A DNA stretch of 42,287 bases from a virus (lineage: Duplodnaviria; Caudoviricetes), in the IMG/VR virus record IMGVR_UViG_3300037608_000246, positions 1 through 42,287 of that record; one strand, written 5' to 3'. The notes under the pieces are model-generated. The model saw only the letters and a list, made by a program, of their open reading frames with translations. It searched no databases and was not told where the DNA came from. Shown here one piece after another: positions 697 to 34,427 of this stretch; within the stretch, counting starts at the first letter, position 1; every line of letters starts with the position of its first letter. The position numbers and the translations under genes are program-made.

Positions 697-1149
697 CTAT
701 ATTTCCAGAAAATTATCGCGATCATCTTCAAAACAATCCAAGATCATTAGCATAATTTGGTTCTTAAAATTTGGATATCTCAGCATCTTTTTAATGGAGC
801 ATTCCCAGATTACAATGACTTTCCACCCAAGACTTTTTAGCAATAAATAGTTATTTAAATCCCTCTCCTTGTTTCTCTTTAACTTTTTCTCCCAATACTC
901 TACATTTGACTTTGGCCACTTGAATCTCGAACAGCCTTCATGCATGTGCCAAAAGCACCCATTAACAAATATCACCGTCTTATATTTTGGCAGAACGATA
1001 TCAGGGCATCCAGGCAATCGTATATCATTCTTTTTATACCTAAACCCCTTGCTGAATAAGTATTTTCTTACAACTTCTTCTGGCTTTGTATCCTTACTTC
1101 GTATTCTTGACATGTTGTAACTTCGTATATCTTTTGAGTGGTTGTCCAT
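697..1149 (-). CDS. vsr: Very short patch repair endonuclease
   Basis: RSYNMSRIRSKDTKPE, LPGCPDIV, FVNGCFWH and GWKVIVIWEC motifs; next to a C5 methyltransferase. Confidence 0.95.
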   Translation of the reverse strand: MDNHSKDIRSYNMSRIRSKDTKPEEVVRKYLFSKGFRYKKNDIRLPGCPDIVLPKYKTVIFVNGCFWHMHEGCSRFKWPKSNVEYWEKKLKRNKERDLNNYLLLKSLGWKVIVIWECSIKKMLRYPNFKNQIMLMILDCFEDDRDNFLEI

Positions 1150-1160
1150 TAAATCACCTA

Positions 1161-2702
1161 CTAAAGATCTGACAAAATCACCTGCCTGTTGACCGAAAAG
1201 ATATCTTTAATATTTGAATGTGAATATTGTTTATGCGTATGTTTTTCAACCAGCCTTATCATATTTGTGACACTAATTGCACTGCCATTAGTTTTTGTTT
1301 CATCAGCGATGCTTCTAATTTGCGAATCAATGTTTGACCCAAATCCTCCTGAAATATATGAAAAGAATGCAAGTGGATATATACCTGATTTGTATTGCTC
1401 TATGTAATTATGTACCATCCTATTTCGATGATCATTTGAAACGGTATATTTTCGATACGCTTTATTATCTACAATTCCAATGTATTTTCCTTCATTTGAA
1501 ATTAAAAAAACATCAGGATTGAGCCCTACTGGGCCAATATGTCTAGCATCAAAACCAAGAATGTTCTTAAATAGTTCAACTGTTGCCTTTTCAAATTCAA
1601 TTGCGTTGTCTCTACCCTTAAATGCAAGCTCAAAGTATTCAGTCATAAACGAACCGATCGCACCATTTGGATACAGGTTTATTAATGTTTCTTCAACTAT
1701 TTTCTCTTCAAAACCTGTAATGTTTGATATTTTTTTAACCAATTCAGAAGATATTTTTGTAATTGGATATTTCAAAGATTCTGAAATAAAAGCTGTTTTG
1801 ATTTTTTGAATAGCAATTATTCCGGGCGTTATAGTTTTTGTTTCGGTCAAATTTCGAATATCCTTTTTATGTTTTGGATCAAGTCCGTACTTTCGCTGAT
1901 AGTATTCATGCTCCTCAGGTCTGTCAATCAACTTGCTTTCTACGTTCAATATCTTAAAAACATCATTAAACTTCTCATCAAGAATCCTCAATTTTTTTTC
2001 ATCGTCTCTTTTTGCTAGCTGAGTGTATTCAATCCAGTTGGCAATAGTATTAGCAGCGTCAAGAATATGTCTGAAAGGATGATCTGGGTTGACCTCACCA
2101 GTTTTAGGCGCAATAACATCAAAGAAATCAGCTGATAAGCATCTATTACCAATATTCCTGAATTCATATATTCTACTAACTATTTTTTCATAACATCTAT
2201 CATTTTCAGCCTCTACAATAACTATCTTTGCAATTTCTTCTATCGTTAAGTAACCTACTCTGTCGTCGGCGAGCAGTCGAAGGATAAATCGAAATGGTTG
2301 AATTCTAAACCTTTTAGAGACATCAACTCCCCTTGTGAGAGAAAATGAAGATGGGAACTGGTATTTTAATACTTGATTAGTGATAATTTCGACTGGTGAT
2401 TCTCCAGCCAGTATTGCCTCCCCAGCAAGTGTTAGCTTCACCTTCTTTGTCGATTCCTGAATAAAGATCAATCCCAAACTTACAAGCCAAGCATAGTATG
2501 TCCTGGCTCCACCCCCACGCTGGTCTCTTCGTTCTCCAACTCTTTTGAGGCCAGATTTTTCAAGGGCTTCTTCAAGTGATAATTGAGTGCCTACTTGTCC
2601 GTACCATTCCATGTCGTAAGAAATTTCGGCAATAGTTGCTAGTACTTCTGGTATGGAATTCAATTTTCGCTTGGGTCTCGACACCCACCAATGATTTATC
2701 AC
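1161..2702 (-). CDS. Restriction endonuclease, AlwI-family-like N-terminus with a FokI-like PD-(D/E)xK cleavage domain (type IIS-like)
   Basis: C-terminal FE...HIG...PDVF...IVDNKAY resembles the FokI catalytic region (HLGG..KPDG...IVDTKAY); VLKYQFP motif; lies between the MTase and vsr. Confidence 0.8.
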   Translation of the reverse strand: MINHWWVSRPKRKLNSIPEVLATIAEISYDMEWYGQVGTQLSLEEALEKSGLKRVGERRDQRGGGARTYYAWLVSLGLIFIQESTKKVKLTLAGEAILAGESPVEIITNQVLKYQFPSSFSLTRGVDVSKRFRIQPFRFILRLLADDRVGYLTIEEIAKIVIVEAENDRCYEKIVSRIYEFRNIGNRCLSADFFDVIAPKTGEVNPDHPFRHILDAANTIANWIEYTQLAKRDDEKKLRILDEKFNDVFKILNVESKLIDRPEEHEYYQRKYGLDPKHKKDIRNLTETKTITPGIIAIQKIKTAFISESLKYPITKISSELVKKISNITGFEEKIVEETLINLYPNGAIGSFMTEYFELAFKGRDNAIEFEKATVELFKNILGFDARHIGPVGLNPDVFLISNEGKYIGIVDNKAYRKYTVSNDHRNRMVHNYIEQYKSGIYPLAFFSYISGGFGSNIDSQIRSIADETKTNGSAISVTNMIRLVEKHTHKQYSHSNIKDIFSVNRQVILSDL

Positions 2703-2725
2703 AGCTGCACCTTCTTAAAGATATT

Positions 2726-3781
2726 TTATTCTTTAATGTTGCACACCACATTATTGTAGGGAATTCCTGCAAATGTTTTTAATACTGCTTCAAGAATAAT
2801 CTGAGCACCTCGTGGTGGTACCGCCATCCCAATTTGCTTCCTTACGCTCTCTTTAGATCCTTTGAACTCATAGTCATCTGGAAACGTCTGCAGTCTTGCC
2901 CTTTCTCTATTTGTCAAAGCCCTGTGCTCTAAATAATGATAAATATGAGTTCCGCCACCACCTGAACCAGTCACGGTATAGGCGGGTTTATCAGGATGTA
3001 ATCTTTTGTATATCTGACTAATTTTAGCACCTTTTACGTTCAGTTGTAAATGCTCTGGTAAATTGGCGTTAAATGCATTTTCACCTGGCTTAATATGCTT
3101 CAATCGTTCAACTACCTGGGCTGACTGTTTTGTCAACTCGTTATTGAATGCGTTGTCAGATATTGGAGGATTTTCAATTGCGTTTTTTGCGGAGTTATTA
3201 ATGTCTTTATATTCTGTAGGACTAGGTGGCGCAAACACGAATGGCAGATCTTTTCTAATTCCAATAATTATAATTCGATGTCTTGCTTGAGGTACTCCAT
3301 ATTCTTCGAATTTGTAAAGGTGAGGGTAAATGTTGTATCCAACCTCTTTTAGATCATCGAGGATTTGCTTTAACGCGCCGCCTTCATTTGCAGATTTCAA
3401 ACCACCTACATTCTCAGCAAAAAACCATGCAGGTTGGAATCTTTTTAAGACTTTGACACCATAGGTGTACAGTGGTCCAAATGTTCCATTAAAGCCTTTC
3501 TGCTCTCCTACCTGTGAAAAGTCATTACACGGAAAGCCAAACGCCAACGCATCAATTGGACTTAATTTATCAATGTCGAGTTTTCGAACATCTCCACAAA
3601 TAACGCTTTCAGGGTTTTCGGGACAAATATTGCGTCGATATGTTTCGCAAGTATCAGCATCATAGTCATTTGCCCATTCGTGGATTATTTTATAATCTTC
3701 TATTTCAATAGATGCTTTTTTAGCACCATAAGCAATACCACCTGGTCCGCAGAACAATTCACCCAACTTAAATTCCTTCAT
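2726..3781 (-). CDS. dcm: DNA (cytosine-5)-methyltransferase
   Basis: Motif I ELFCGPGG, IV GFPCNDFS, VI ENV, VIII QARHR, IX RERARLQTFPD, X QIGMAVPP. Confidence 0.96.
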   Translation of the reverse strand: MKEFKLGELFCGPGGIAYGAKKASIEIEDYKIIHEWANDYDADTCETYRRNICPENPESVICGDVRKLDIDKLSPIDALAFGFPCNDFSQVGEQKGFNGTFGPLYTYGVKVLKRFQPAWFFAENVGGLKSANEGGALKQILDDLKEVGYNIYPHLYKFEEYGVPQARHRIIIIGIRKDLPFVFAPPSPTEYKDINNSAKNAIENPPISDNAFNNELTKQSAQVVERLKHIKPGENAFNANLPEHLQLNVKGAKISQIYKRLHPDKPAYTVTGSGGGGTHIYHYLEHRALTNRERARLQTFPDDYEFKGSKESVRKQIGMAVPPRGAQIILEAVLKTFAGIPYNNVVCNIKE

Positions 3782-3795
3782 ATTACAACTCCCAT

Positions 3796-4254
3796 CTATA
3801 CTTTTTCGCCATTTATGAGGACAAATTGCCTTTCAAATTAACCGCCCACCGCATTGGCAATGATATCAAGTTCGGTAATAGTGAAACTTTCTCTTTTAAG
3901 CTTTGAATTAAAGTTCTGTGGTGAGTGACCAATTCTTCGCGCCATTTCTGCAACGCTGATATTTGATCGTACACACAAAACACTTATTTGTGAATATTTC
4001 GCGGTAAAAGCATCATCAATTCGCACTTCAGGCAGCAGTAGTCCACAATCAGGGCATCACTGTCACTTTCATTCTAACTCGAGACAGAGTAAGAACCTCA
4101 ACAGTAGCTCAATAGCCTCATAGAGGGTTGAGATACTAACCTTAATCTCCATAATGCTAATCTGTGAATTCAGTCAAAATATCAGGGTGATGCTCAACCG
4201 CGAATCAGTGATGCCCTGACCACGAAATAATCATATTTGCTCAGAAATCGTCAT
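3796..4254 (-). pseudogene. Xre/HTH regulator (controller-like) of the RM operon, disrupted by a MITE and a nonsense codon
   Basis: ATG at 4254 reads MTISEQI. Removing 3991-4233 and one TATTTG copy continues in frame as SVLCVRSNISVAEMARRIGHSPQNF...AVGG, then TAA (3838-3840), then FERQFVLINGEKV and TAG at 3796-3798. Confidence 0.85.
3991..4233. mobile_element. 243-bp non-autonomous MITE-like insertion (TG...CA ends, multiple subterminal repeats, IS21-like architecture)
   Basis: 25-bp terminal inverted repeats (3991-4015 vs 4209-4233, 20/25 match); 6-bp direct repeat TATTTG at 3985-3990 and 4234-4239; internal 14-bp perfect IR at 4049-4062 / 4206-4219; no transposase. Confidence 0.88.
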
Positions 4255-4287
4255 TCAGCACTTCCGTTGCTAAACAATATCATTTAT

Positions 4288-4316
4288 ATTGTAAATTATA
4301 AAGTTTATAAAGTAAA
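4288..4316 (-). promoter_or_regulatory. Sigma-A-type promoter of the HTH/RM operon with a palindromic operator in the spacer
   Basis: TTTACT (4311-4316), 17 bp, TACAAT (4288-4293); perfect IR TTATAAA-G-TTTATAA at 4296-4310. Confidence 0.6.
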
Positions 4317-4323
4317 CTTAAAA

Positions 4324-4337
4324 AGAACCCTTGTTCT
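4324..4337. promoter_or_regulatory. Possible LexA (SOS) box
   Basis: AGAAC-CCTT-GTTCT matches the Firmicutes GAAC-N4-GTTC consensus; just upstream of the RM-operon -35. Confidence 0.4.
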
Positions 4338-4348
4338 AATTGTGATCG

Positions 4349-4378
4349 AAAAAAGAGTCGCGGACTCACCGCGACTCT
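4349..4378 (-). terminator. Intrinsic terminator
   Basis: Perfect 10-bp stem AGAGTCGCGG / CCGCGACTCT, 5-nt loop, T-run on the minus strand. Confidence 0.8.
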
Positions 4379-4461
4379 GCAATCTGTAGCCACCCAAAGT
4401 GGAATTCGTATCTTATTGTACCCATTTTACTTGTTCGATCGAAAGTATTCAATTAATTTGT

Positions 4462-4492
4462 AAAAAACTCGCCATTTAAGTTAGGTGAGTTT
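4462..4492 (-). terminator. Intrinsic terminator after the Lamassu operon
   Basis: AAACTCGCC...GGTGAGTTT stem with a minus-strand T-run, about 40 bp after the lmuB stop. Confidence 0.65.
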
Positions 4493-4532
4493 CTAAAAAA
4501 TCTTATTTTACCAATTTATACTATAAAATTTA

Positions 4533-6290
4533 TTATACTTCTTGATAATCTTTCTTTAAAAATTTATTTTTCTTCGTAAAAGAAGCAACTTTATGACTAT
4601 CTATATCAATATTTATAAGTCTTTTTCTTTCTTCTCCTTCAATTTTATCCCTATTCAACGTTAAAATATATTGAAATTCAAGCCCTTTTTCTTCTTGTTT
4701 CCCCAAATAATTCAAACACTGAACTAGCGTATCTTGATCAACATCAAAGATATTATCATGTATTAAAAATAAAGGATGTCGAAGATTTGTGTAGATATTA
4801 AACATTAAAGCCATATCATAAATAAATACTTTAGTTCGGTTTACGCTTCTACTACCATCATCATAAATCCTCATATGAATTTCAATTGGTGTTTTTGATT
4901 GATCTTTATCAATTGTTTGAATCAAAAACGAACATTCTTTATTTCCCATAATTGATTCATGAATAGTTAATAATGTATTCGTAAATTGCTCCATTAACAC
5001 TTTATTGTTTTCGATTATTTCATCGATTTTTAGTATTTCTTGTGACTTTGATAAAGTTAAACTTTTCTTTTGCTTCAAATTTTTTTCGTATTCTTCAAAT
5101 AACATCTTCATTCTGTTCATTGATGATCTTTTCTCTTCATATATTCGAAGGCCAGATTTTAAATTTCGTAAGACTCCCTTCTGATCAATCATCTTCATTT
5201 TTTCTGAATAGGCATCATCAATTAGTTGTATCTCCTTGGATATTTTTTTTATTTCATCATCTAACTCTGATGCTTTCTGATTAATTAGCATTCTTTGAAA
5301 AGCTTCAACCTTATTTTTGAAAAATTGCATTTCACTAAGCGATTTGACTATCATATCTCCTAAATCATTTTTAAATTGATTATAGACAAGTGCAATCTCA
5401 TGATCATCTATAATCTCTGGTTTTGGAAGTTCTTTAATTTTCGCAAGTTCATACTGGTATATTTTTTTTCTTTTTCTTAGCCTATCTAAAAGCTCCTCAA
5501 AGTCTATGATATCTTTTTCAATCAACTTAAATGCGTCATTTGTTTTAAAATTTTCAATAGCTACATCCATTTTGATTAATTCGTCATCAAGTGAGTTAAT
5601 TTCAGCTTTAACATCAACTAACTTTTTCATATTATTGTTTGTAAGATCTCGTTTATTTTTTGATATTATTTTCTTAATAGTATCAATTTGTTTAATGATT
5701 TCTTGAACATGCTTGTATATTTCATGTGAAATATTCAACATAAATAAATGTGGTGTCAAATCGTTCGGAATTTTTTTTGAGGTATCATGGCATTCCAATA
5801 TATCTTTAAATTCTGACCTCTCATCTCGAATTAAGATTGAAATTAAGCTTCTAATGCTCGGTATTTTATTGTTATCGATTTTTTCAAAAATTAATTCAAT
5901 TAAATACAATCTAGCATCTGCAATTTTATCAAATTTAACGGATATATCATTTCTAATTATAAGTGGTGAATTTTCTTCTCTCCTATTTCGAATAATAGTA
6001 ATTTCATCAGATCCTATTTTCAAATCCAAACAAATATTCTCGTCTAAACCTAGAATATTTCCCGGAATTTTCTTAATTCTAGAATTTTTATAGTCACTCA
6101 ACAAACAAAAATCTATTGCCACGATTGACATAGATTTTCCAACACCATTTGTTTTCCTACCTTTTAATGTATTTTCATTATATTTTTCACCCAAAATAAT
6201 GTTTATACCATCATGGAATATAATATCATCAAATATTTGATTTTCTGAATACAACCTGATAAGGCGAACACGTTTTACTTCCTTATCCAT
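4533..6290 (-). CDS. lmuB: SMC-like ABC ATPase of a Lamassu/ABC-3C defence system (short LmuB, DUF2326-like C-terminus)
   Basis: Walker A NGVGKS, long central coiled coil, C-terminal DDGSRS...FIYDMALM...HPLFLIHDNIFDVDQD (Walker B / D-loop); third gene of an overlapping three-gene operon. Confidence 0.85.
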   Translation of the reverse strand: MDKEVKRVRLIRLYSENQIFDDIIFHDGINIILGEKYNENTLKGRKTNGVGKSMSIVAIDFCLLSDYKNSRIKKIPGNILGLDENICLDLKIGSDEITIIRNRREENSPLIIRNDISVKFDKIADARLYLIELIFEKIDNNKIPSIRSLISILIRDERSEFKDILECHDTSKKIPNDLTPHLFMLNISHEIYKHVQEIIKQIDTIKKIISKNKRDLTNNNMKKLVDVKAEINSLDDELIKMDVAIENFKTNDAFKLIEKDIIDFEELLDRLRKRKKIYQYELAKIKELPKPEIIDDHEIALVYNQFKNDLGDMIVKSLSEMQFFKNKVEAFQRMLINQKASELDDEIKKISKEIQLIDDAYSEKMKMIDQKGVLRNLKSGLRIYEEKRSSMNRMKMLFEEYEKNLKQKKSLTLSKSQEILKIDEIIENNKVLMEQFTNTLLTIHESIMGNKECSFLIQTIDKDQSKTPIEIHMRIYDDGSRSVNRTKVFIYDMALMFNIYTNLRHPLFLIHDNIFDVDQDTLVQCLNYLGKQEEKGLEFQYILTLNRDKIEGEERKRLINIDIDSHKVASFTKKNKFLKKDYQEV

Positions 6291-6502
6291 ATGTGCGCCT
6301 CCTCAAAATCGATAATATTAACAGAATATAAGAATGACAAGCCTAACGTTAGCTGTCGACTGCTGTTAATACCATTAGCTTTCAACAATTTATACAAATC
6401 ATATACAGACATTCTATCTATTTTTTTCTTTTTCATTTCTTTCAAAATAAGAAAACTGATATATGCTGTTGATGATTTTGATATACTTTTGTTAGTTAGC
6501 AA
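6275..6502 (-). CDS. lmuC: Small middle component of Lamassu/ABC-3C (LmuC)
   Basis: About 75 aa from TTG at 6502 (GAGAGGG RBS); wHTH-like with C-terminal LSFLYSVNIIDF; overlaps both neighbours. Confidence 0.75.
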   Translation of the reverse strand: MLTNKSISKSSTAYISFLILKEMKKKKIDRMSVYDLYKLLKANGINSSRQLTLGLSFLYSVNIIDFEEAHIWIRK

Positions 6503-7460
6503 TATAATCAGCCCTCTCATTTGGGAAAACATTACACTTAACTATTTCATTTATTAGATAAAATTTTATTGCAGCTTTGTCATACCGCTTTCCATATGTA
6601 CTTATTTTATCTTCAAAATAATCGACTAATTTATTTAATGCAGAAATCGGATTTTCGTCCGATTCGTCTAAAAACTTTATACTAATATCTTGTAAATATA
6701 ACTGAATTATTATTTCTTGAGCTTCATCAATTGGCATTAAGCTATTTACAATATCAATCGCCTCGCCATATACAACTAATAATGTTTTGTACTCATTTAT
6801 TATACGATTCGAAAAAGCATTAAAACGCTTTAAAATTTTATAATCTGGATCTATTACTGTATCTCTTTTTTCAGAACAAATTCTATTTTTGGTTAAATAT
6901 TCTATTAATTCAATAATTGTCTCAACTTCATTTGCTTGTGATCTTTGAATTTTTTCAATCTTATTCGTGAGTTCTTCTTCGATAAATGCTGATAACTCTT
7001 TCAATTCTTGAATCTCTAATTTTCTAATTTCTCTGATCAAATCTGTATTATCAAGAATATCATTTTTTTTGTCAAAACTAAACTTGTCCTCTGTATTAAA
7101 TTCTGTAGTATATTTTTTTTTCTTTGTAAGCAAAATTACAATCAACCGATCATATATGGTATAGTGCTTATGTTCAATAAACTCTCCTATTGTCTTTTTA
7201 ATTTTTTCACTGCTGTTGTCAGAAGTAACTTGTATAGCAATTTTGTTTATTTCATCTCCCAAGTCTATTGCAACAACATTTCTGTCGATTATATTCAGGT
7301 TTTTTAGGTTATACCTAAAAATTCTATTCAATAATTTTGAATAAAAGTCTTCAGAGATCAAATTAATATCATATAAATTTATTGCATTTCTAGCTTCTAC
7401 TTGATAGCACAAGGTTGCAATACCGTCGCAAACTGACTTTAAATAGAATTCTCTGTTCAC
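6492..7460 (-). CDS. lmuA: Lamassu effector with an N-terminal SMEK-type domain and an ABC-3C C-terminal domain (LmuA)
   Basis: LYDINLISEDFYSKLLN...NLKNLN...AIDLGD...AIQVTS is typical of SMEK domains; C-terminal YLINEIVKCNVFP resembles the ABC-3C CTD ending. Confidence 0.8.
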   Translation of the reverse strand: MNREFYLKSVCDGIATLCYQVEARNAINLYDINLISEDFYSKLLNRIFRYNLKNLNIIDRNVVAIDLGDEINKIAIQVTSDNSSEKIKKTIGEFIEHKHYTIYDRLIVILLTKKKKYTTEFNTEDKFSFDKKNDILDNTDLIREIRKLEIQELKELSAFIEEELTNKIEKIQRSQANEVETIIELIEYLTKNRICSEKRDTVIDPDYKILKRFNAFSNRIINEYKTLLVVYGEAIDIVNSLMPIDEAQEIIIQLYLQDISIKFLDESDENPISALNKLVDYFEDKISTYGKRYDKAAIKFYLINEIVKCNVFPNERADYIAN

Positions 7461-9119: not shown

Positions 9120-12100
9120 CTACCGCACCCCAAGTTTGTAGAGTTCAGCTGACATTTCTGCTTGGATCTTGACGAGATCTGCGAGGGTCGTCGCCTTTAC
9201 GGCCCTCTTCAAGTGATTGTTCATGGCGAGCCGGATCTTCTGGATTTTCGGATCATCGGCCTTGAGATTTGCATTGATATACTTTGTGGTCTTGGACAGT
9301 TTTGAAGAGATCTTGTTCATCGCGTTGTAATGTCGTTCCTCCGGCGTGACGACACTTGACTTAATGCTTTGCTCAATATTCTTGTCATTCTTGACCCGTT
9401 CAGCTTCGTCCAGTTTGTCATAGAAGTCCGTCATGGCCTGTGAGTTGAAGGCTGGGTCTACTGTAAATGCGCCTACAGTAGCACGTTCAATCGCATTTCC
9501 TATCCCTGCGCGTTCAGTTGTTGCAGGAAGCAGTATCTGACCAACTACTCCCGTGTAAGACCTGATGATGTAATCCATCTGCTTCGGAGAAATGTTCGTC
9601 AGACGACCAATGGCCTTTGCAATCTCGGAGGTGTTGTCGTCATACTGATTTTTACCGGAGTATTTCTGTAAACTCTGAGGAACAATGGTGCGTCCAGCAA
9701 AGTCTTTATTAACCGGCAAATTCCAAATGATCGGAGCAAAGATGTTACTAGTGAATGGATCAACTGGAGTGAAGTTTGTGGCTACAGTCCCGGCAAAGCC
9801 TTTGTAGGATCCTGCTAGCGCCCTCTCAAAGAGGGATCCCCACAAAACACCAAGCTCCCTGGATTTCGGTATCTTCCAATACGTTCCGTCACCTTTAGGA
9901 AAGACGTAGTAAGCATCTTTTGTACGCTGATCGAGCATCTTGTACTTCTCTTCGTCATCGGCCATGCTGACAAGATAGGAAACGATCTGCGGCGCGGTGA
10001 CTGCGATGCCCGCTTTGGCCATGCGCTTCAGAGCGCCGGATGGATCCTTCTTGAAGTTGAAAGCCTGGAAGAATCGGTCAAGACCCTGCACAGACGCGTT
10101 CAGGTAAGGGACGAACGGTTCGACTTGTTTGGTGATGTCACCGCCACGTGCGAAGTTGACAGTGACGTTCTGAGCGGCATAGAGAGCTTTCTCCACATCT
10201 CCGGTTTTCTCGAGGACGTAGTTGAACTCGGAGATCCTTGGGGCTTGTTCTGTGAGGTTGTTGAGCCACTCGATCATCTTCAGAGGTACTTTTAGTTTTG
10301 AGGCCGCGCTAGGCTGAAGAAGTTTCGCATATTGAGCCGCTTCACTCGCCGCAAACTGACCCGAACCAGCGCCGCCAATGTTCTTGAATATTTCTGCTCC
10401 ACCAGTGTCTGTGGCGATCTCATAACCAGCCTTTGCTAGGTTCATAAGGAAGAATAACGGGTTGTCCTGAGAACCGTATACATAAGCGGTTGGGATGTCG
10501 CGGAAGATGTTGCGCAGAGCGAAGAGTGGGTTGTATTGGGTGATGAGGCCCTTAAAGACCCCTGTGACCTTACGCATAACCTGTGCGTTGTTGATGATCT
10601 TTGGTAAGCCCTGAAGTGCTTCCAGAAGCATCTTGTCGTTGATCTGGAGATACTGAGGACTGCCGCCCTCCCAGATTGCGATCACATTATCGAGTTTTTT
10701 ACTTCGAAACATCCCGATATTGGCCGGTATCTCCTCGACGAACTTTTGCATCTCTTGGGGGTTATTACGAACCTCTTCTAGAAGGGAAAGGCCAACTTCA
10801 TTGTAGCGAGCGGTTCGCACTACCTTATTGACCATCTGCATGACATTTCCCACTGGGTTGGTGAGATCACGATCTGATCCGGTTGCTTTCTTAACTGGGT
10901 TCGGAAGATCCACGAAGCGCTTGCCTGGCCCACCATGTCCTACGTCCTCAAGATCTGAGAACTCACGGTAGGTTGGGAAGTAGGACGGATACATTTCGCG
11001 CCACTCGTCGTAGGTTTCAGCGTCGATGATCCCAGTGTTTACCGCCCACGTTTTCATGAACTGGTCGATCCATGCGGTTACGCTGTCACCCCACGCACGG
11101 TACTCTGGGTATAGCCGTTCGGCGTTTGCCGCGAAGACGATTGAGTCGTCCGGCGTCATGCCCGGATCTACCGGCTTACCCTCTCGGGAGCGGTCAATGT
11201 TGTGACGCTGGGCCATGTACTGCCAGAAGTCCTTGTTCGTCGCGAACGGCTCTGTCACTGTCTTCCACGACGTGCCTACATCCCGCCCTTTAGTGTCGAC
11301 GAGGGCGTGGGTCAAAATGCGCTCCACTGATCCGGAGACCAATGCTGTGTTGGCCGCTTTCATTTTGACCGTGTCGCTGACTTTGTTCAACGGGTGATTC
11401 TTGTCGACTATCCTGCGATATAGATTGGCCAGATCGCCTTTCAAATCCCTAGGCACCTTCTTCTCGTCCATCTTGATATCGATTGTAGGGACGGAAAACT
11501 TGTCAGCGGGTAATGCCTTTAGCCACGCGTTTTGAGCCTTATGATATTCTTTGATCAGTATTTCAGGCGCTTCATTTAATCCGTCTTTATAGGAATAAAT
11601 TTCATTGCTAAGATCTTCATACTTCTTTTGCAAGGCTTTGATGTCGACCAGTCTTGGCGCAGCCTCGTCGTCGTCTTCGAAAACTTCCTCAGCATCGTCG
11701 ACTTCTTTTACATGCTGATAATCATCGAAGTCTTCTTGCGCTGGGTTCTCTGAAACATAGAAAGCTTTCTCATTCATATCCTTTAGGTTAAGTTCACTAA
11801 AAACGTTTTCAAGCAACTCTAGCGCTACTTCAAATGTCAGCGGGTCATAACCCTCGTCTATTGCGTCCTCATCAGAATAGATGCCGTTCGAATCGTTTTG
11901 TTGGAGTACACGGATAAGATTTTTTCTTCCAATCTTGTCTGCGTTATTAAGGATCCACCTTGGAGATTGCTTCACGCTGTACTTTTCTCGTCCTTCCCAA
12001 GCACTCTCACCGACTCCTTCTTCCCTGCCCTGCCAGACACCTGGTCTCGAATCGTTTAGAGCACCTCGAGCGCCGTCCCCGGTTGTGGCGTTAATGACCT

Positions 12101-15100
12101 CAAAGAGATAGGCGTCATCGATTAGTTTTCTCGCCTCCTCAAAGACAAGCATATTCTCAGCTACGAGGAAAGGTCGGTGCCCACCAAAGTCAAGGGCGTT
12201 TTTCTTGAGGTGGCTTTTGAGTTTTTTCTGATCAAAAGCCACCTCAGACGGGATCTCCTGTATACCCCGGACTTTAAGACCCGGAGACATATAGAAGATG
12301 GTCGAGTACCCCTCATTGCCCTTCAGTTCCTTAGCCATTTCGACGACGTCTTCAGCGCTGCCAATCTTTCGCCCAAGAAGTGCGTGAGGCTTGTCTGGCA
12401 TAAGAAGTTTGTCCGATCCGAGGTTTAAGTCGTGTATGGAAGCCTCCTTAAAATTATCAGGCGAGATGAGGCCATACTGGCCACTGTTGATGACGATATG
12501 CCCTTTAAATTCCACGATTCCACTAAACATACCCGCAAAGCGCCCGGTCATGTCGAAGTCTTGCCCCGAAGGCATAGGTTGCCCGGACGGGTGGTTGTGC
12601 ATAAGGTAAAAACTAGTCGCATCCATGCTCTTGGCAAAGTTGATCTCTGTGTTGATCCACTGCTCCTTTTCTGCTCCATCCTTACCGACGAAGATTGCTG
12701 ACGATCCCGGCATCCGGGAAGAGACACCAGTGTGGTGGACTATCTGCCCGTCGTCGTTTAAAAAGAACATCCGGAAGGTTTCGAAGCGAGGATCTCTGAG
12801 AACTTGCGCAATGACCGCAAGCTCATGGGTGTCCTTTATTTTTTGTCCGATGAACTCGACTTTACCTTTGCTGAGGAATTTTTTTGTGTAGTCTCTTGCA
12901 ATCGTTTTAGCACGTCGAGATCCGTCCACCTCTCGTCCGGTAGGGGTTTGTACACTGAATTTTTCTTCGAGTGCTTCAAGAGCTTGGGCACCGAGAACCG
13001 CCTCCTGTTCAGAAACTTTAAGGTTTTGCATCAATATAATGCTTTTTTCAACTGTTTCAGCTGAGAACTCCTCAATCAAGGCTTTTGCAACCGATTTATC
13101 CGAAGGAAGTGATCTATGTTCTTCGACATAGTCGCTAAGCAGCTTCGAGATTGCAACATCTTTAAAAATAGGTTTTGGTGGTGCCATCTTAATATTATTT
13201 CCTGATCCGTCAACCATTCTGCGGTCAATCAGGAGTTTCCAGTAGTTCTCTTCATGAGAGAACTGTTCAAACTTAGGTTTTACACCAAACTGCTCGCAGA
13301 GTTCGAGATACTTCTGCTGATTCTCCTGTGGTGTCTTTTTGTTATCCCACCATTCAAACATTTCGGGTACCCTGACTTTTCTCTGGCGTGCCTTCTCATG
13401 ATTTTTTCCACCATATGCTTCGTTTATATCCCAGTCGAAGACAACTTCGCGCTGGGTTGATTCGTAATTTGTCCATTTTTCAATGCCCTGACCCGAGAGA
13501 GCCCGATTTTCCGCACTAAGCCCTGAGATGTGGTACGGAATGACATAATCAATGTCCGGTGAGCGTAATAGTGCCAGAATTTGATCGTCGTTGATGCCAA
13601 TTGCTATGGTACCCGCTGTTTTGTCAAACCGGTTTCTGAAATTGAGGGCTGTCTCAAAGTCCATCCCTTCAATGGAATCAAATACGAGTTTCCCGTTTTT
13701 CATACCTGATTCGCCTTTAGGAATAAGGGACAGATTAATCATTAATCCTGTGTCCCCTAATAGCTCCACAAATTCAGGAACTTTTGTATAAGCATGGCCG
13801 GTAAGTCCAACTCTGGACATGTCAACTATAGCTTGCATTGCATCAAGCAAATGAGGGATCTCAAAGTCTGACCATGACTGCCAACGTAGCCCAGATCGTT
13901 CATTATACGCTTTTACTTTATTCTTGTTTCTGCTAAAATGCTTAAGAATTTCTCCACGATACTCCGTTCTGCTCTCTTGCGTCTTGATTCCGCGGACACC
14001 AGTGCTCGAATTGAATTTTGAGTAAATCTTTGGTTGCTCTACCTTTAGTCGATCGTATCCTTCCTGCGTAAGAAATAAATCAGGGTCAAGATCTGGATTC
14101 TCTTCGATGAATTTGTTTGCAACTTTTCCGAGTTCAATTCGCCGAGAATCTACATAGCAAATTCCACACGAAACAACTACACCCTTATCCAACAACGTCT
14201 TTCTTACTTTAAGAAATTCAGCAGGTGACAAACCTCTTCCAATCGCTGTCTGTATCTCTTCAATAGTTCCCTGCATGACAAGTCTTTTTTTGCATAGTGT
14301 TGAGAAGTCTAATGACTTATCATAGTGAGGATCTGAGTTGTCCTTAAGCGCAGTGTACAAATCTGAGGCTTCATAATCTAAGCGAATCGGATCATTCAAT
14401 ATGATAGCCATAGCATTATCAAGACTTTTCAACCAATTTGACACCTTATTCTTTGGCAGTCCAAGCTTTTCAATCAGATCCTTTATAGCTGCAGACTTTT
14501 CTTCTCCTGTCCATGTTCGAACACTATAAAGAGGTGCAGCTGATGCCGCTTCAACAACTACTTCCGATGTTTGAATTTTGCCCACATCACGGCCCATAAC
14601 CTCAGCAACGACTTCTTCGAACTTCTTCTGAAAATCCTTAATCTGCGTCTCTGTCATGACGCCGAGATTGCCAGATTCCTTCTTATCATCTGTGAGGATG
14701 CGATTGATAAAGGATCGAATGACTCTGGCAAGTTTCTGAGCCGTGGTGACGTCGCGCTCATAGAGGTTTTGCCAAAATTGCCTGTCAGTAAAAAGGGATC
14801 CGGCTTCCTCCGCCAACATTTCTTCAATCAGGAGTTCGCGGTCTCCGGATAGACGCTGTTGATACTCCTTATCCATCGCATATTTCGACAGTTGTTGATT
14901 GATCTTTTCAGTAGTCAAGCTGTTTCCGACCACTTCACGGAGCTTTTTATAGAGATCGCCATGCTTTGTGTTGACGTGATGGAGAAACTCGTGTCCAAAA
15001 ACGTCCATGACGACCTTGCCCTCTGTCGCCTCCGCGCGATTGATGAAGATCGTGTTCGCTTCCCTTGACGAAAACATACCCCTCGTATTGGCACGCCCGC

Positions 15101-17435
15101 TTTCATAGAAGACGACGTCCACACCAAGGCGTCTGCCGAGCTTCTGAGCTTCGAGGTGACCGATCTCAAGATCTGCAGCCCGAACCGCTGTTGCTCCTGT
15201 CAGCGCCTTGACGTTTGTGATTCTATTTGTTGCCTCTGCGTCGTCGATGAGGCGCACAGGTGCTTCAATAGCCGTCTTGGCTCCCTCAAATGCTCTAACC
15301 TCTGAGAAAGTCTTCAGTGTTTTCCACTTCTGGAAGGCTGCATTGTTCGTATCCGGGATCCCCTTGAGCGCCATGATGGATCTGACCATACGGGGCTCGA
15401 CGCCGAGCTCCTTGGCAATGGTTTTACGGGCTGTGCCCTCCATGGCCATATCCGCGATCCGCTGGTCAATGCCGTCCTCAACTGCCAGCGCTAGGTCTGC
15501 TTCCATGTTCTTCAGAACGGTCTTGTTCATCTTAGAGGTGTCGACGACCGGTGTGAACTCAGGTATCTTTGGCTCTGCTGTCTCCGCTTTCGTGAGTTCC
15601 TGTAGACCAGGAGTACGATTCTTGTAAGCCTGTTCCTTTGCCATGTCGAGAATGTCGAGAGAAGCATAGCCCCTGAGGAGGCTCTCCCGGATCGACTCAG
15701 GCGTCGTGTTTTCGATCTCGTCTTGAAAGGCTTCCCACTCCTGCATTGACTCAACATCGTTAGACTCGCTCTTAAGGATCTCCTTCTGATAGTTGATCAT
15801 TTTGTCCATGATCTGATCCGCTGCGTCAATGAGTTCGGTCTGGGCGTAGGTCTCACCGCGGTACTTGGTGTTCTTACCCTTTTGGCTTTCTTCGGGCACA
15901 CCTTTACGCTTCTCGTACTCGGTCATCTGCTTGGTGTAGCCTTCAAGGTCGTAGGAGATCTGAGGTGTGGTCTTCTCCTTGATGTAGTTGATCGCCGTAC
16001 CCGGAGTGGCCATCGCTCCGCCTGCGAAACCACCCGTAGTACCCAGCGCCGCGGAATAGAGATCGCGCTGCGGGTTGATTATGGATTCAGCGTTCGGATC
16101 GTCTGAGTAGATCGGGATGTCTTTACCTGCGACGATGCGATCCACCGAACCTTCCCACCAGTTCTGCTTGACCTCCTCAAAACCCTCACCGAGTGAGCTC
16201 TTAAGGAAATCGACCGCCTTCTCCATGCCACCTTCTTTGAAAGCTTTGTTGACACCGCCACCCTCGAGGACGCTCTGGCCATAAGCGTTGATAAATGCTG
16301 TGAAGAAAGCCTTGCCATCGTCCATGCCTTCAACGAGGTTCCTCTGGTAGGACTGGGAGAAGATCTTCGCCCCCAGCGGCAGTGTCTCAGGGCTGATGAC
16401 CGCACGCTTGGCGAGCTCAACCATGGCGACCTTGCGGGTCTCTTTGCTGAGTAGTTTCTTGCCAATCTCCTTCGCGCCCATCTGTGCCACATTGCCTGTA
16501 CCGCTTGTAGCCAAAGCGAGGACGATAGTGGTCAGCATGTCCGGGACGAAGGAAGTGAAGTCGTACAGGAAGCCTTTGATCGCGTCGTCGCCGACGGTAG
16601 CTTCACGGTTGATGCCCATCTGTTGGTACTGCTCTGCACCGCGCCGAAGCTGACCTTTTGCTTTCTGCTCGCCTGCGAGGAGCTCTTCCTGAGACACTAC
16701 CCTGCCGGACTCAATCTTTCTCATGTTGTAGGTGTTGCCCCCACCAAGTCCCTGCAGAGTATTACTTGCAGCCTTCGTGCCGAGCCACCAGTCCGAGAGA
16801 CTCTGGGCGATGACCTTCAGTTTGCCGTCGTTAGGGAAACGTGCATCGATCTCGGCCTTGGCCTTACTAACAGCCTGCTCGTGCTGGATCTCACCGTATA
16901 GGGCGTCCTGCGTCGCTTTCTTAAAAGCCGAGTCCAGCTGGTACTGCTTCAGACTCTGCGAGTCCAGGGTGTTGGCCGCAAGGGTGAGCCATGCGTATTC
17001 GTCCTGAGGGTTGGCTGCGATGCTGGTGCGAGCCTGCTCGGTGACGAGCTTCTTCTTTACGTTCTCCACCGTCGGGGTCTGCCGGAGTAGGGCTTGCTTT
17101 TGTTCAGCGATGGCTTTGTAGGCCATGGGATTTAATGAGGTCATAGTTCTTTGCTGGGCCTCGATCTCTCTGAGGCGCTTGTTCTGCTCCTCCTGCTCCT
17201 TCCTCAAACGGTTCTGAATGGTGACCGGCGTGATTCTGGGCGCAATGACAAAGCCTTGCCGCTGTGAATGGAAAGGGCTTTCGATCTTCGGCGCGATGCT
17301 GTCGACAGTCATCTTCTTAGGCTCCTCGTATCTGGATGCCTTGAATCGCTCAAACTCGTCGGTTTTTCTGGATTCTACGAAGCGTTCAAACTCCGTCTTT
17401 TTTTTCTTGCTCTTGTTGTCATCTCTTATTAACAC
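9120..17435 (-). CDS. Giant polyvalent internal virion/ejection protein (zincin HExxH, CxxC module, JAB/RadC, LPD38-like C-terminus)
   Basis: 2771 aa; HEFLH at aa 815-819; CGICY at aa 1090; E...HNHPSG..PS..D JAB motif at aa 1613; C-terminal WKIPKSRELG...NKDFAGRTIVP...ISPKQMDYIIRSYTG typical of LPD38; sits in the podovirus ejection-protein position before lysis. Confidence 0.85.
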   Translation of the reverse strand: MLIRDDNKSKKKKTEFERFVESRKTDEFERFKASRYEEPKKMTVDSIAPKIESPFHSQRQGFVIAPRITPVTIQNRLRKEQEEQNKRLREIEAQQRTMTSLNPMAYKAIAEQKQALLRQTPTVENVKKKLVTEQARTSIAANPQDEYAWLTLAANTLDSQSLKQYQLDSAFKKATQDALYGEIQHEQAVSKAKAEIDARFPNDGKLKVIAQSLSDWWLGTKAASNTLQGLGGGNTYNMRKIESGRVVSQEELLAGEQKAKGQLRRGAEQYQQMGINREATVGDDAIKGFLYDFTSFVPDMLTTIVLALATSGTGNVAQMGAKEIGKKLLSKETRKVAMVELAKRAVISPETLPLGAKIFSQSYQRNLVEGMDDGKAFFTAFINAYGQSVLEGGGVNKAFKEGGMEKAVDFLKSSLGEGFEEVKQNWWEGSVDRIVAGKDIPIYSDDPNAESIINPQRDLYSAALGTTGGFAGGAMATPGTAINYIKEKTTPQISYDLEGYTKQMTEYEKRKGVPEESQKGKNTKYRGETYAQTELIDAADQIMDKMINYQKEILKSESNDVESMQEWEAFQDEIENTTPESIRESLLRGYASLDILDMAKEQAYKNRTPGLQELTKAETAEPKIPEFTPVVDTSKMNKTVLKNMEADLALAVEDGIDQRIADMAMEGTARKTIAKELGVEPRMVRSIMALKGIPDTNNAAFQKWKTLKTFSEVRAFEGAKTAIEAPVRLIDDAEATNRITNVKALTGATAVRAADLEIGHLEAQKLGRRLGVDVVFYESGRANTRGMFSSREANTIFINRAEATEGKVVMDVFGHEFLHHVNTKHGDLYKKLREVVGNSLTTEKINQQLSKYAMDKEYQQRLSGDRELLIEEMLAEEAGSLFTDRQFWQNLYERDVTTAQKLARVIRSFINRILTDDKKESGNLGVMTETQIKDFQKKFEEVVAEVMGRDVGKIQTSEVVVEAASAAPLYSVRTWTGEEKSAAIKDLIEKLGLPKNKVSNWLKSLDNAMAIILNDPIRLDYEASDLYTALKDNSDPHYDKSLDFSTLCKKRLVMQGTIEEIQTAIGRGLSPAEFLKVRKTLLDKGVVVSCGICYVDSRRIELGKVANKFIEENPDLDPDLFLTQEGYDRLKVEQPKIYSKFNSSTGVRGIKTQESRTEYRGEILKHFSRNKNKVKAYNERSGLRWQSWSDFEIPHLLDAMQAIVDMSRVGLTGHAYTKVPEFVELLGDTGLMINLSLIPKGESGMKNGKLVFDSIEGMDFETALNFRNRFDKTAGTIAIGINDDQILALLRSPDIDYVIPYHISGLSAENRALSGQGIEKWTNYESTQREVVFDWDINEAYGGKNHEKARQRKVRVPEMFEWWDNKKTPQENQQKYLELCEQFGVKPKFEQFSHEENYWKLLIDRRMVDGSGNNIKMAPPKPIFKDVAISKLLSDYVEEHRSLPSDKSVAKALIEEFSAETVEKSIILMQNLKVSEQEAVLGAQALEALEEKFSVQTPTGREVDGSRRAKTIARDYTKKFLSKGKVEFIGQKIKDTHELAVIAQVLRDPRFETFRMFFLNDDGQIVHHTGVSSRMPGSSAIFVGKDGAEKEQWINTEINFAKSMDATSFYLMHNHPSGQPMPSGQDFDMTGRFAGMFSGIVEFKGHIVINSGQYGLISPDNFKEASIHDLNLGSDKLLMPDKPHALLGRKIGSAEDVVEMAKELKGNEGYSTIFYMSPGLKVRGIQEIPSEVAFDQKKLKSHLKKNALDFGGHRPFLVAENMLVFEEARKLIDDAYLFEVINATTGDGARGALNDSRPGVWQGREEGVGESAWEGREKYSVKQSPRWILNNADKIGRKNLIRVLQQNDSNGIYSDEDAIDEGYDPLTFEVALELLENVFSELNLKDMNEKAFYVSENPAQEDFDDYQHVKEVDDAEEVFEDDDEAAPRLVDIKALQKKYEDLSNEIYSYKDGLNEAPEILIKEYHKAQNAWLKALPADKFSVPTIDIKMDEKKVPRDLKGDLANLYRRIVDKNHPLNKVSDTVKMKAANTALVSGSVERILTHALVDTKGRDVGTSWKTVTEPFATNKDFWQYMAQRHNIDRSREGKPVDPGMTPDDSIVFAANAERLYPEYRAWGDSVTAWIDQFMKTWAVNTGIIDAETYDEWREMYPSYFPTYREFSDLEDVGHGGPGKRFVDLPNPVKKATGSDRDLTNPVGNVMQMVNKVVRTARYNEVGLSLLEEVRNNPQEMQKFVEEIPANIGMFRSKKLDNVIAIWEGGSPQYLQINDKMLLEALQGLPKIINNAQVMRKVTGVFKGLITQYNPLFALRNIFRDIPTAYVYGSQDNPLFFLMNLAKAGYEIATDTGGAEIFKNIGGAGSGQFAASEAAQYAKLLQPSAASKLKVPLKMIEWLNNLTEQAPRISEFNYVLEKTGDVEKALYAAQNVTVNFARGGDITKQVEPFVPYLNASVQGLDRFFQAFNFKKDPSGALKRMAKAGIAVTAPQIVSYLVSMADDEEKYKMLDQRTKDAYYVFPKGDGTYWKIPKSRELGVLWGSLFERALAGSYKGFAGTVATNFTPVDPFTSNIFAPIIWNLPVNKDFAGRTIVPQSLQKYSGKNQYDDNTSEIAKAIGRLTNISPKQMDYIIRSYTGVVGQILLPATTERAGIGNAIERATVGAFTVDPAFNSQAMTDFYDKLDEAERVKNDKNIEQSIKSSVVTPEERHYNAMNKISSKLSKTTKYINANLKADDPKIQKIRLAMNNHLKRAVKATTLADLVKIQAEMSAELYKLGVR

Positions 17436-17464: not shown

Positions 17465-18658
17465 CTAGTCGATTGGGATACTCAACATTTTCATAAGCCT
17501 GAACGCTTCCTCGTCTGTGAGTGCGGACTGCTTGATCATATCGCCGACTTCTTTCTGAGTGTGCCGAGGAGCATCAATTATTTGATCAGGGTATTCCGGA
17601 TCAACTTTCTTTTTTGTGGCGCCGATCATGTCCCACGCGCGGCTGAACATATCCTTGAACATCTTTGACTCGCCTTCCACAGCCTGCATGGCATTGTTCG
17701 GATTACTCGGATCCTTCGACCAGTTGAACTTTTCTCTGTCTAGGGCGAGGTTGCCCCAGGAGATCGATCGGCTGGCGGCGGCATTGGCCTGATCCGCTTG
17801 AAAAGCCTTGAGCCACTGTCCGTCTGCGACCTTGTCGCGGTCTTTCTGATAATTAAAGGTTGTCTGCCACTGCTGGTCGCTCACCACGGCGCGTTCTTTG
17901 GCGAAGTCAAACTGCTGGTTCCACTGCTGGTTGCCGGTGTCAAAAGACTTCTGCCACTGCTGGTCGCCTACAGCGTCACGGGACTGCTGGTACTGGGCGC
18001 CGTAGAGGCGGTCTGACTCGTCGATTAAGGCGGCGTTTTTCTGGGCGGTCGTGGTAGCGTTCATCTCGAGTTCTTTAAAGCTAGAAGATCTGTTGTTGTC
18101 TGCGATGGCCCTTTTCAGATTCTGTACGAGGTTGATCTCTTGCTGGTTGAGGGCGGTTTTCTGGGTATCGGCATTGGCGACGATCGCCCCTTGATCTGAA
18201 GCCACCCCTCCGCTGAAGGCGTTGCCCTTAGCCGCAGCAGTCTCGTTGGCCCTTTGCATGTTGCGCATCGCGCCGACATCGGCCTGATCCCTGAAGGGCT
18301 GGAATTGTGCGGGGGCGCCCGCAATCTGCTGGTTGTAGTCAGAGTTAGCCTGATCCCTTGCGGCCTGTATCGACGCGATCTGTGCGGCAGCCTGCGCGTT
18401 GAACATACTGCTGATCATACCGGAGTTGTCGACTGGTGTCGGTGTTTGTGTAACTAGGTTCTGTATTTTGTTGTATCCAGTGCCGTCGGCGTTGGTGCTA
18501 AAGCCCGCTGCGTTACGGATAGCCTCGGCCGCCGCTCTAGCGGCTTCCATGCCTGCTTTGTCCCCTGAAACGTTGGCCGTGGTCCAGGCATCGCCTAGAC
18601 TTTTGACCTTCTTTTGATCCTCCGCACTTAGTGTAAGATCGCCTACTTTAGTTGCCAT
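17465..18658 (-). CDS. Putative internal virion/ejection (DNA-pilot-like) protein, Q/A-rich with DQQWQ repeats
   Basis: 397 aa, helical composition; 18-bp repeat TCTGCCACTGCTGGTCGC at 17863-17880 and 17950-17967. Confidence 0.6.
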   Translation of the reverse strand: MATKVGDLTLSAEDQKKVKSLGDAWTTANVSGDKAGMEAARAAAEAIRNAAGFSTNADGTGYNKIQNLVTQTPTPVDNSGMISSMFNAQAAAQIASIQAARDQANSDYNQQIAGAPAQFQPFRDQADVGAMRNMQRANETAAAKGNAFSGGVASDQGAIVANADTQKTALNQQEINLVQNLKRAIADNNRSSSFKELEMNATTTAQKNAALIDESDRLYGAQYQQSRDAVGDQQWQKSFDTGNQQWNQQFDFAKERAVVSDQQWQTTFNYQKDRDKVADGQWLKAFQADQANAAASRSISWGNLALDREKFNWSKDPSNPNNAMQAVEGESKMFKDMFSRAWDMIGATKKKVDPEYPDQIIDAPRHTQKEVGDMIKQSALTDEEAFRLMKMLSIPID

Positions 18659-33701: not shown

Positions 33702-34427
33702 CTAAAACTCCATTAGTAACCCCGGTTCTGCAACTAAGGTCTCAATACCCGTACGCATGTTGATTCTGTTTCGAAAGGTCTCAGGCTCAGAATTATTGTC
33801 TGACGTGTGAAGCAACATGATCCTTTTAGTCCTAACAAGATCAGATGCCATTAAAAAAGCTTCAACATCACTTATTTCGAAATGAGACTGCTTGGCGCGC
33901 TTTGCAATCTTCGGATGGATCTTCCCATCTCTTACATTACGCTCAAGGATCTCAAGGTCATAATTAGCTTCTACCAGAAAACAGTCAATCGCTTTAAACT
34001 TGTATTTCAGAAAGTAGGTGTCAGTTGCAAAAACGACTCTCTGTTTGAGATCCCTGGATTCAATCAGAAAACCAAGAGGCTCACTGGCATCATGCTGAAC
34101 CAGAAAGGGAAGCACATCGAACTCTCCGATAGATATAGGCTTATTCACCTCCAGAACGCGCGCATTCCGGTTTATAGCCCCAATAGTATCTAATGTTCCC
34201 TTGCTGGCATACACATCCATACTGAGGTTAAGAAGTTCTTTCACAGCTGATGCATGATCAAGGTGTTCGTGACTGACGAGTACCCCGACGACCTTTGAAA
34301 TATCATGCCCCAGACCTTCAAGGACCTTTCTTTTGGGGACGCCTGCCTCGATCAGCAGGACGTCCCTCGCTCCACTTAAAATGTAGCAGTTTCCTTTCGA
34401 ACCACTCGCGATGACCTTTATTTTCAT
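33702..34427 (-). CDS. MBL-fold metallo-hydrolase (recombination exonuclease)
   Basis: SGSKGNCY, SHEHLDH, HDA, ATDT, EANY and LLHTS motifs. Confidence 0.9.
   Translation of the reverse strand: MKIKVIASGSKGNCYILSGARDVLLIEAGVPKRKVLEGLGHDISKVVGVLVSHEHLDHASAVKELLNLSMDVYASKGTLDTIGAINRNARVLEVNKPISIGEFDVLPFLVQHDASEPLGFLIESRDLKQRVVFATDTYFLKYKFKAIDCFLVEANYDLEILERNVRDGKIHPKIAKRAKQSHFEISDVEAFLMASDLVRTKRIMLLHTSDNNSEPETFRNRINMRTGIETLVAEPGLLMEF

Follow-up and report, generated by a model that had tools for sequence, protein, structure and literature searches.

A conserved motif flanks exchangeable cassettes in a giant phage polyvalent protein and may mark sites of self-processing

Background

Phage-type polyvalent proteins, in the sense of Iyer et al. 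2017 (PMC5512222), combine unrelated domains, with a metallopeptidase (MPTase) and LPD domains as hallmarks, in a virion-gene setting. The main text of that paper proposes that functional units are cut out of the polyvalent protein by the MPTase, either inside the head or once the protein has been injected, and it also raises the recombinational exchange of cassettes. The protein studied here, 2771 residues long and encoded by a single open reading frame (ORF) of the provirus record IMGVR_UViG_3300037608_000246 (42,287 bases, called the window below), is a polyvalent protein in this sense. We find that its cassettes are flanked by a conserved motif, which lies in predicted flexible linkers and is confined to the zone downstream of a peptidase of the type found in this protein (window-type peptidase).

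The MPTase, RadC/JAB and LPD38 domains are shared with the phage-type proteins described in the main text of PMC5512222, and the ART-PolyVal domain is found in close relatives of the window protein. One passage of that paper confines RadC to the polyvalent proteins of conjugative elements, whereas in the window RadC is fused with a phage-type LPD38. The same main text names no radical-SAM or GP88 domain and no cleavage site or linker motif, although its supplements may bear on the latter.

Three other giant proteins invite comparison. According to the available text of a recent preprint (bioRxiv 10.64898/2026.04.10.717836), phi24B gp47 is a 2811-residue protein with LPD38 and a metallopeptidase, detected in virions and proposed to be an ejection protein; its authors hold that the peptidase degrades peptidoglycan, and that text reports no processing of gp47. 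Compared by description only, gp47 differs from the window protein in its cassettes and in its Gram-negative host. An HExxH domain, as here, is also carried by two packaged giant proteins, N4 vRNAP (PMC13434306) and P1 DdrB (PMC5512222). In the available parts of these papers, N4 vRNAP is ejected into the host but packaged whole (PMC13434306), whereas DdrB is processed before packaging by a single cut, whose attribution to the MPTase is a prediction (PMC5512222); a repeated junction code is described for neither (PMC13434306, PMC5512222).

In the literature covered, which took in few subscription papers, we found neither the motif nor a GP88/radical-SAM cassette described for polyvalent proteins. 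The ideas of an MPTase that processes its own protein and of recombining cassettes date from 2017; the predicted sites with their motif and the radical-SAM-like cassette appear to be new.

Results and discussion

A motif at the edges of exchangeable cassettes

Residues are numbered from the GTG start codon of the ORF, which amounts to the numbering from the first Met plus 41; this start is backed by the homolog P0002, 76% identical across residues 1-50. As a first-pass annotation of the window had stated, [YF]SV occurs exactly four times in the protein, at Y970, F1493, Y1819 and F1980 (motifs 1 to 4; Table 1), and the HEFLH of the peptidase lies at residues 815-819. Chance predicts 0.74 occurrences, and the probability of at least four is 0.007 (Poisson and 5000 shuffles). 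Because the pattern was chosen after the fact, the main support rests on the homologs rather than on this value. Family-wide, the consensus is [KRQ]-[YF]-S-[LVIDE]-[RK].

The homolog P0002/L001, whose core is 85% identical, tracks the window protein as far as a KFSV equivalent to Y1819, continues into an unrelated ART-PolyVal cassette ending in NPDIRFSI, and regains identity at F1980. The exchange thus falls exactly between motifs 3 and 4, which supports the swapping of cassettes at the motif, and P0004 and P0005 also rejoin the conserved core at motif 4. Motif 2 is a partial exception. It is kept in P0002 and P0003, but in P0003, where a distant paralog replaces the module containing a CxxC motif (the CxxC module), identity resumes at about residue 1470, before the motif. 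Among the JAB matches, of which every second one was viewed, YS follows the helix preceding motif 2 in P0123, P0139 and P0143 and is missing from most others. Motif 2 therefore lies between folded domains and yet off the swap point, because the preceding helix belongs with the JAB cassette. The placement of the motifs at module boundaries, as first proposed, holds for cassette edges, with motif 2 displaced to about 20 residues after the true CxxC/JAB swap point.

In 36 dereplicated homologs, motif 1 retains S in 32, [YF] in 24, [LVI] in 28 and [RK] in 25. At the other end of the CxxC cassette, whose N-terminal edge carries motif 1, [YF]S is found 2-26 residues past its edge in 35 of 64 dereplicated proteins, as compared with 15-18% in controls, and many of the misses are near-variants (LSDR, TSIR, ASLR). 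The same motif follows unrelated folds, namely the peptidase, the radical-SAM-like cassette, JAB and ART. Breakpoints were also analyzed in 74 sampled proteins, excluding the sites that had defined the motif: at least 10 homology breakpoints lie within 12 residues of 35 of the 90 motif sites, versus 14% of 1133 control positions. At lower thresholds the difference is nil or small (0.60 versus 0.64 for at least one breakpoint, 0.47 versus 0.39 for at least three).

In AlphaFold models, motif 1 is placed in a low-confidence tail preceding a domain with a predicted local distance difference test score (pLDDT) of 91, and F1493, Y1819, F1980 and a degenerate fifth site, F1893, all fall in low-pLDDT linkers. 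The first-pass annotation had named motifs inside predicted folded domains, or motifs not conserved at junctions in homologs, as observations that would speak against it; neither was made, the offset of motif 2 being the only departure.

Base composition also differs between modules. The six spot counts of GC content given earlier were reproduced (0.35, 0.40 and 0.38 at 13021, 14341 and 11521, versus 0.63, 0.65 and 0.58 at 16381, 12541 and 11101), and the GC content of third codon positions (GC3) is 0.68 in the N-terminal region, 0.53 in the MPTase, 0.39 in the CxxC module, 0.54 in JAB, 0.45 and 0.43 in the small modules D and E, and 0.60 in the core (chi-square, p=1e-23). As GC3 of the CxxC module is 0.585 in L001, the window copy has a history different from that of L001.

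Three further candidates were rejected. F1457-S ('EEFSAE') lies in the last helix of the CxxC cassette; 'VKYSVW' of P0007-type proteins falls within a shared conserved stretch, some 45 residues before the core begins; and VxEPxxY, considered as an alternative junction motif in peptidase-free JAB proteins, is not enriched (14 versus 11.3). Bacillus phage Page gp20, the MetMV protein and L002 have the core alone in common with the window protein, and one motif match each, which makes them unsuitable as models for testing.

Association with the HExxH peptidase

The window protein has an intact HExxH and a third zinc ligand (H815, E816, H819 and E872); the first three are invariant in 29 of 29 aligned proteins, and the distal E872 is found in at least 90%. 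No Pfam family matches its peptidase domain above cut-off, and family members give only weak Pfam peptidase matches. The comparisons that follow were made on a protein set collected through the window protein's own modules.

In 170 proteins with a window-type peptidase, motif sites are fewer than expected upstream of the peptidase (36 versus 51.6), 2.6-fold enriched in the cassette zone (173 versus 65.5, not counting the interior or the edges of the radical-SAM cassette), and close to background in the final 600 residues (59 versus 48). A motif is present 110-230 residues downstream of the peptidase in 84 of these proteins, versus 28 in an upstream control window. Over whole proteins, the ratio of observed to expected sites is 2.03 in 174 proteins with the window-type peptidase, 1.09 in 33 with another HExxH subtype and 1.49 in four with HExxxH only. 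Relatives without a peptidase give 1.06 if short (33 core relatives) and 1.31 if large (28); eight of the large ones were judged truncated by eye, and the remaining 20 give 0.82. The motif is therefore tied to the protein's own HExxH domain in position and distribution, as had been suggested.

In proteins with other HExxH subtypes, the edges of the radical-SAM-like cassette often show different residues: [NATD]S[VI]R occurs 7 times versus 0.9 expected in six proteins, and another edge code, [LF]xQ[SAGTE], 39 times versus 25.7 in nine proteins, two of them window-type. Both patterns were chosen post hoc on small sets. On the same cassette, [NATD]S[VI]R or [LF]xQ[ST] edge codes are seen in P0221, P0242, P0310 and P0363 and in P0183, P0185 and P0338. 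With wide windows, [YF]S follows JAB in 10 of 17 window-type, 5 of 13 other-HExxH and 10 of 28 peptidase-free proteins.

HExxE replaces HExxH (as HEIGE or HEAVE) in the ORF L060:6419, in L061 and in the ORF L080:6476, all of which keep the YS motif; these forms are possibly a variant zinc site.

Self-processing and alternative explanations

How could such a motif be maintained between unrelated cassettes? We lean, with rather modest confidence, towards the motif peptide being a recognition code for self-processing by the HExxH metallopeptidase in cis, which would free the cassettes after packaging and likely after ejection. The sequences show the motif, its place at cassette edges and the exact exchange at two of the sites, whereas packaging, peptidase activity, cleavage and its timing are inferred. 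The protein would be packaged whole and then ejected into the host, where the refolded zincin would cut at the motifs in the flexible linkers and so separate the N-terminal and LPD38 parts from the cassettes (radical-SAM-like, JAB and small). Cutting upon refolding after ejection seems likelier than cutting before packaging, since cut cassettes would lose their packaging handle. The cassettes themselves are likely exchanged by ordinary recombination; recombinants joined at the linkers would persist, since their folds stay complete and every joint still has a cut site.

Several observations weigh against self-processing. According to the main text of PMC5512222, packaging or transfer leaves N4 vRNAP, ArdC and TraC1 whole even though each has an MPTase. 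Kinship confounds every comparison between motif and peptidase, and most relatives that lack the peptidase lack cassettes as well and so offer no joints to mark. Motif 1 remains YS at the N-terminal edge of the cassette in several proteins of other subtypes. After ART, [YF]S is found in 56 of 66 window-type proteins, and also in 11 of 14 other-HExxH and 6 of 13 peptidase-free ones. The motif is kept beside non-canonical active sites: HEIGE (L060/L061), HEITR (P0387), HEAVE (L080) and HExxxH (P0184, P0208). At the N-terminal edge of the core it is present in only 3 of 14 peptidase-bearing versus 2 of 33 peptidase-free proteins, the 11 misses being distant proteins (22-27% identity) in which the edge is placed imprecisely. 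In the window protein, P0002 and P0003, the 26 residues that follow the radical-SAM cassette are free of the motif. The low pLDDT around modules D and E is weak evidence, as the alignment there is shallow. Finally, among cultured phage records none has the window-type peptidase subtype or the radical-SAM-like cassette; one unannotated faecal contig was matched.

Four alternatives are considered: an uncut binding tag, a site for another protease, a recombination footprint, and chance. In the first, the motif would dock cassettes on the HExxH domain, the core or the portal/tail channel, for packaging or threading, and the protein would stay whole. Linker position, conservation at the protein level and lineage-specific codes fit this equally well, and so does the persistence of the motif beside non-canonical HExxH variants. 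In the main text of PMC5512222, moreover, N4 vRNAP requires its MPTase region for encapsidation and is nevertheless packaged without processing, and the available part of PMC13434306 places its HExxH subdomain within the C-terminal domain that binds the polymerase. However, the aligned family retains the full set of zinc ligands, including the catalytic Glu, and a site on each side of nearly every cassette fits release better than docking. We regard an uncut tag as unlikely.

The motif might otherwise be cut by a host protease or by another phage protein, including the JAB domain, instead of the cis HExxH peptidase. The association with the peptidase could then reflect the kinship of Firmicutes-type phages that share host proteases, and some motif-bearing proteins do lack a canonical HExxH. 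Against this, the stretch before the peptidase has fewer sites than expected and sites begin right after it, JAB is present in only 17 window-type-peptidase proteins, and no separate head or prohead protease gene was found among the ORFs scanned. We therefore consider this explanation improbable. Head-maturation codes of the T4 gp21 or phiKZ type are recognized by a separate prohead protease, and the same motif is found in scaffold, capsid or portal. The window phage fits neither trait: of the 10 proteins scanned (head, tail and neighbouring structural ones) none has the motif, which is therefore not a head-maturation code.

A third possibility is that the motif is a footprint of recombination, that is, a DNA microhomology or site for cassette exchange with no role for the peptide. 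Swaps that end exactly at the motif and shifts of GC3 between cassettes agree with it. In site-specific recombination cassettes, however, conserved border DNA is expected, and codon use at the motif is free. The four window sites have DNA in common only as far as the amino acids force it. Every one of the six Ser codons occurs among 83 sites from dereplicated viral loci, third positions carry no information, and Ser codons are shared by 17 of 78 pairs of sites within one gene, which is the chance level (0.21 expected). Even at the orthologous motif 4, the Ser codon is TCC in the window and AGC in L001. The motif is thus conserved at the protein rather than the DNA level; as a site-specific DNA signal the footprint is largely refuted, and we hold it very improbable overall. 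Chance, or a motif that simply caps the ends of domains structurally, has next to no probability: the pattern is post hoc with P=0.007 in one protein, and some sites are homologous copies, since motif 1 and the C-terminal NPDIR[YF]S of ART travel with their cassettes, but the motif follows unrelated folds, is enriched without its defining sites and lies outside predicted folds, which refutes chance.

If self-processing by the cis peptidase is retained, the self-cutting idea of 2017, which lacked predicted sites, now has Y970, F1493, Y1819, F1980 and perhaps F1893. With E816 as the catalytic residue to mutate, and with natural code changes between peptidase subtypes as controls, it becomes testable at the bench. 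The motif can also be used to parse hundreds of giant, as yet unannotated proteins from uncultured phages, and its analysis exposes a large radical-SAM-like cargo family. Self-processing, if confirmed, would point to a broadly applicable means of loading and releasing proteins through a phage particle. More tentatively, and with some doubt on our part, podovirus ejection proteins may be self-cutting delivery belts, in which each peptidase subtype reads its own junction motif of 4-5 residues and any enzyme edged by that motif can be plugged in and released at injection; the cargo would include an undescribed Fe-S radical-SAM-like enzyme, known from about 2,000 sequence clusters, with radical chemistry on phage DNA or host nucleotides before phage gene expression.

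The radical-SAM-like cassette

The 'CxxC module' of the first-pass annotation does contain the Cys motif; we now describe it as a predicted GP88-like Fe-S enzyme with a radical-SAM-like fold. Its invariant Cys residues, C1048, C1090 and C1093, are spaced C-x41-CxxC. A search of 50%-identity representatives found 2174 relatives, the best 150 being mostly giant proteins, whereas no relative was matched among 50,697 phage records. Searches of Pfam and of PDB profiles with the module gave no match, and Foldseek with its model gave nothing at E 0.001 or better. The model is closest to spore photoproduct lyase and QueE, with modest matches to radical-SAM partial barrels (4fhc, Z 8.7, root-mean-square deviation 4.7 over 247; 5tgs, Z 8.0, deviation 4.9 over 196). 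The top 16 VIA-align rows are all radical-SAM enzymes, judged in part by their entry titles. The homolog P0302 matches GP88 clusters in Atlas at 0.90-0.91.

The likeness to the radical SAM superfamily and GP88 (PF17338) thus consists of a partial barrel match of a model and three invariant Cys. The canonical radical-SAM motif is CxxxCxxC, unlike the spacing seen here, and the window cassette is embedded in giant proteins. P0302 itself (681 residues) apparently stands alone: it belongs to the radical-SAM-like family but has neither a peptidase nor a YS motif. The YLTEA at its N-terminus may resemble a head-protease leader of the T4 type.

Module map of the protein

The MPTase, radical-SAM-like, JAB and LPD38 domains are all in a single ORF (Table 1), and relatives exchange cassettes for ART or drop them. 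Pfam recognizes LPD38 (PF18857, E 4.7e-30, residues 2495-2642) and the RadC-like JAB. The N-terminal region is likely a packaging or conduit part. What had been called an acidic module divides into two, D and E, at the degenerate fifth site.

Table 1. Features of the 2771-residue protein and their positions in the window (aa, amino acids)
Feature	Position (nt)	Strand	Basis or remark
Phage-type polyvalent protein, likely ejection (internal virion) protein	9120..17435	-	gene position, provirus record
N-terminal region, aa 1-735	15231..17435	-	no [YF]SV; GC3 0.68
Zincin-like metallopeptidase (MPTase) domain, aa 736-950: H815, E816, H819, distal E872	14586..15230	-	alignment conservation
Motif 1, Y970-S-V(R), N-terminal edge of CxxC/radical-SAM-like cassette	14520..14528	-	homologs; low-pLDDT N-terminal tail
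'CxxC module', aa 970-1467, predicted GP88-like radical-SAM-fold cassette	13035..14528	-	pLDDT 91 model; GC3 0.39
Actual swap point (LKVSE, about aa 1472) and N-terminal helix travelling with JAB cassette	12960..13022	-	helix pLDDT about 46
Motif 2, K-F1493-S-V, linker between helix and folded JAB core	12951..12959	-	pLDDT about 35
RadC-like JAB cassette, aa 1512-1790: E1552, H1613, H1615, D1626	12066..12902	-	Pfam PF04002
Motif 3, K-Y1819-S-V-K, left breakpoint of cassette swap versus P0002/L001	11973..11981	-	homolog alignment
Small module D, aa 1819-1892	11760..11981	-	of no known family; among fetched proteins, only P0003 shares it
Degenerate fifth site, F1893-Y-V (FSI in P0003)	11751..11759	-	pLDDT about 33
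Module E, aa 1893-1979: acidic disordered stretch and predicted helical hairpin	11499..11759	-	model
Motif 4, K-F1980-S-V-P, right breakpoint, start of conserved core	11490..11498	-	pLDDT about 32
Conserved C-terminal core, aa 1980-2771; LPD38 at nt 9510-9953	9123..11498	-	Pfam; 345 homologs

Module D, of 74 residues, is predicted to be helical and has an NDSNGIYSD core. The model of the JAB cassette apparently contains two similar alpha/beta units, of which the first alone has the conserved E/HxH/D residues. A metagenome scan with the JAB-to-core segment gave 155 pattern matches, none of which was confirmed.

Genomic setting of the provirus

The window carries an integrase, recombination genes, a terminase, a P22/SU10-like portal, an SU10-like capsid, tail-like genes, an amidase and a holin-like gene. 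The giant ORF is the final gene of the structural block of this podovirus-like provirus, and the lysis genes (amidase and holin-like) come directly after it. Given this gene position, and by analogy with its distant LPD38 relative phi24B gp47, the protein is likely packaged in the virion.

Just upstream of the giant gene, a gene for 397 residues (17465-18658, minus strand) encodes repeated Q-Q-W-x-x-x-F units without a Pfam match; its product is likely a second ejection protein. Past the lysis genes, at the provirus edge, a cluster on the minus strand (697-7460) comprises genes for a Vsr endonuclease, a protein with a FokI cleavage domain, a C5 DNA methylase, and DUF2326 and SMEK-domain proteins, which suggests a restriction or defence-like function. 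Lastly, a metallo-beta-lactamase-fold gene in the recombination cluster (33702-34427, minus strand) has a weak, below-cut-off match to the anti-Pycsar protein Apyc1.

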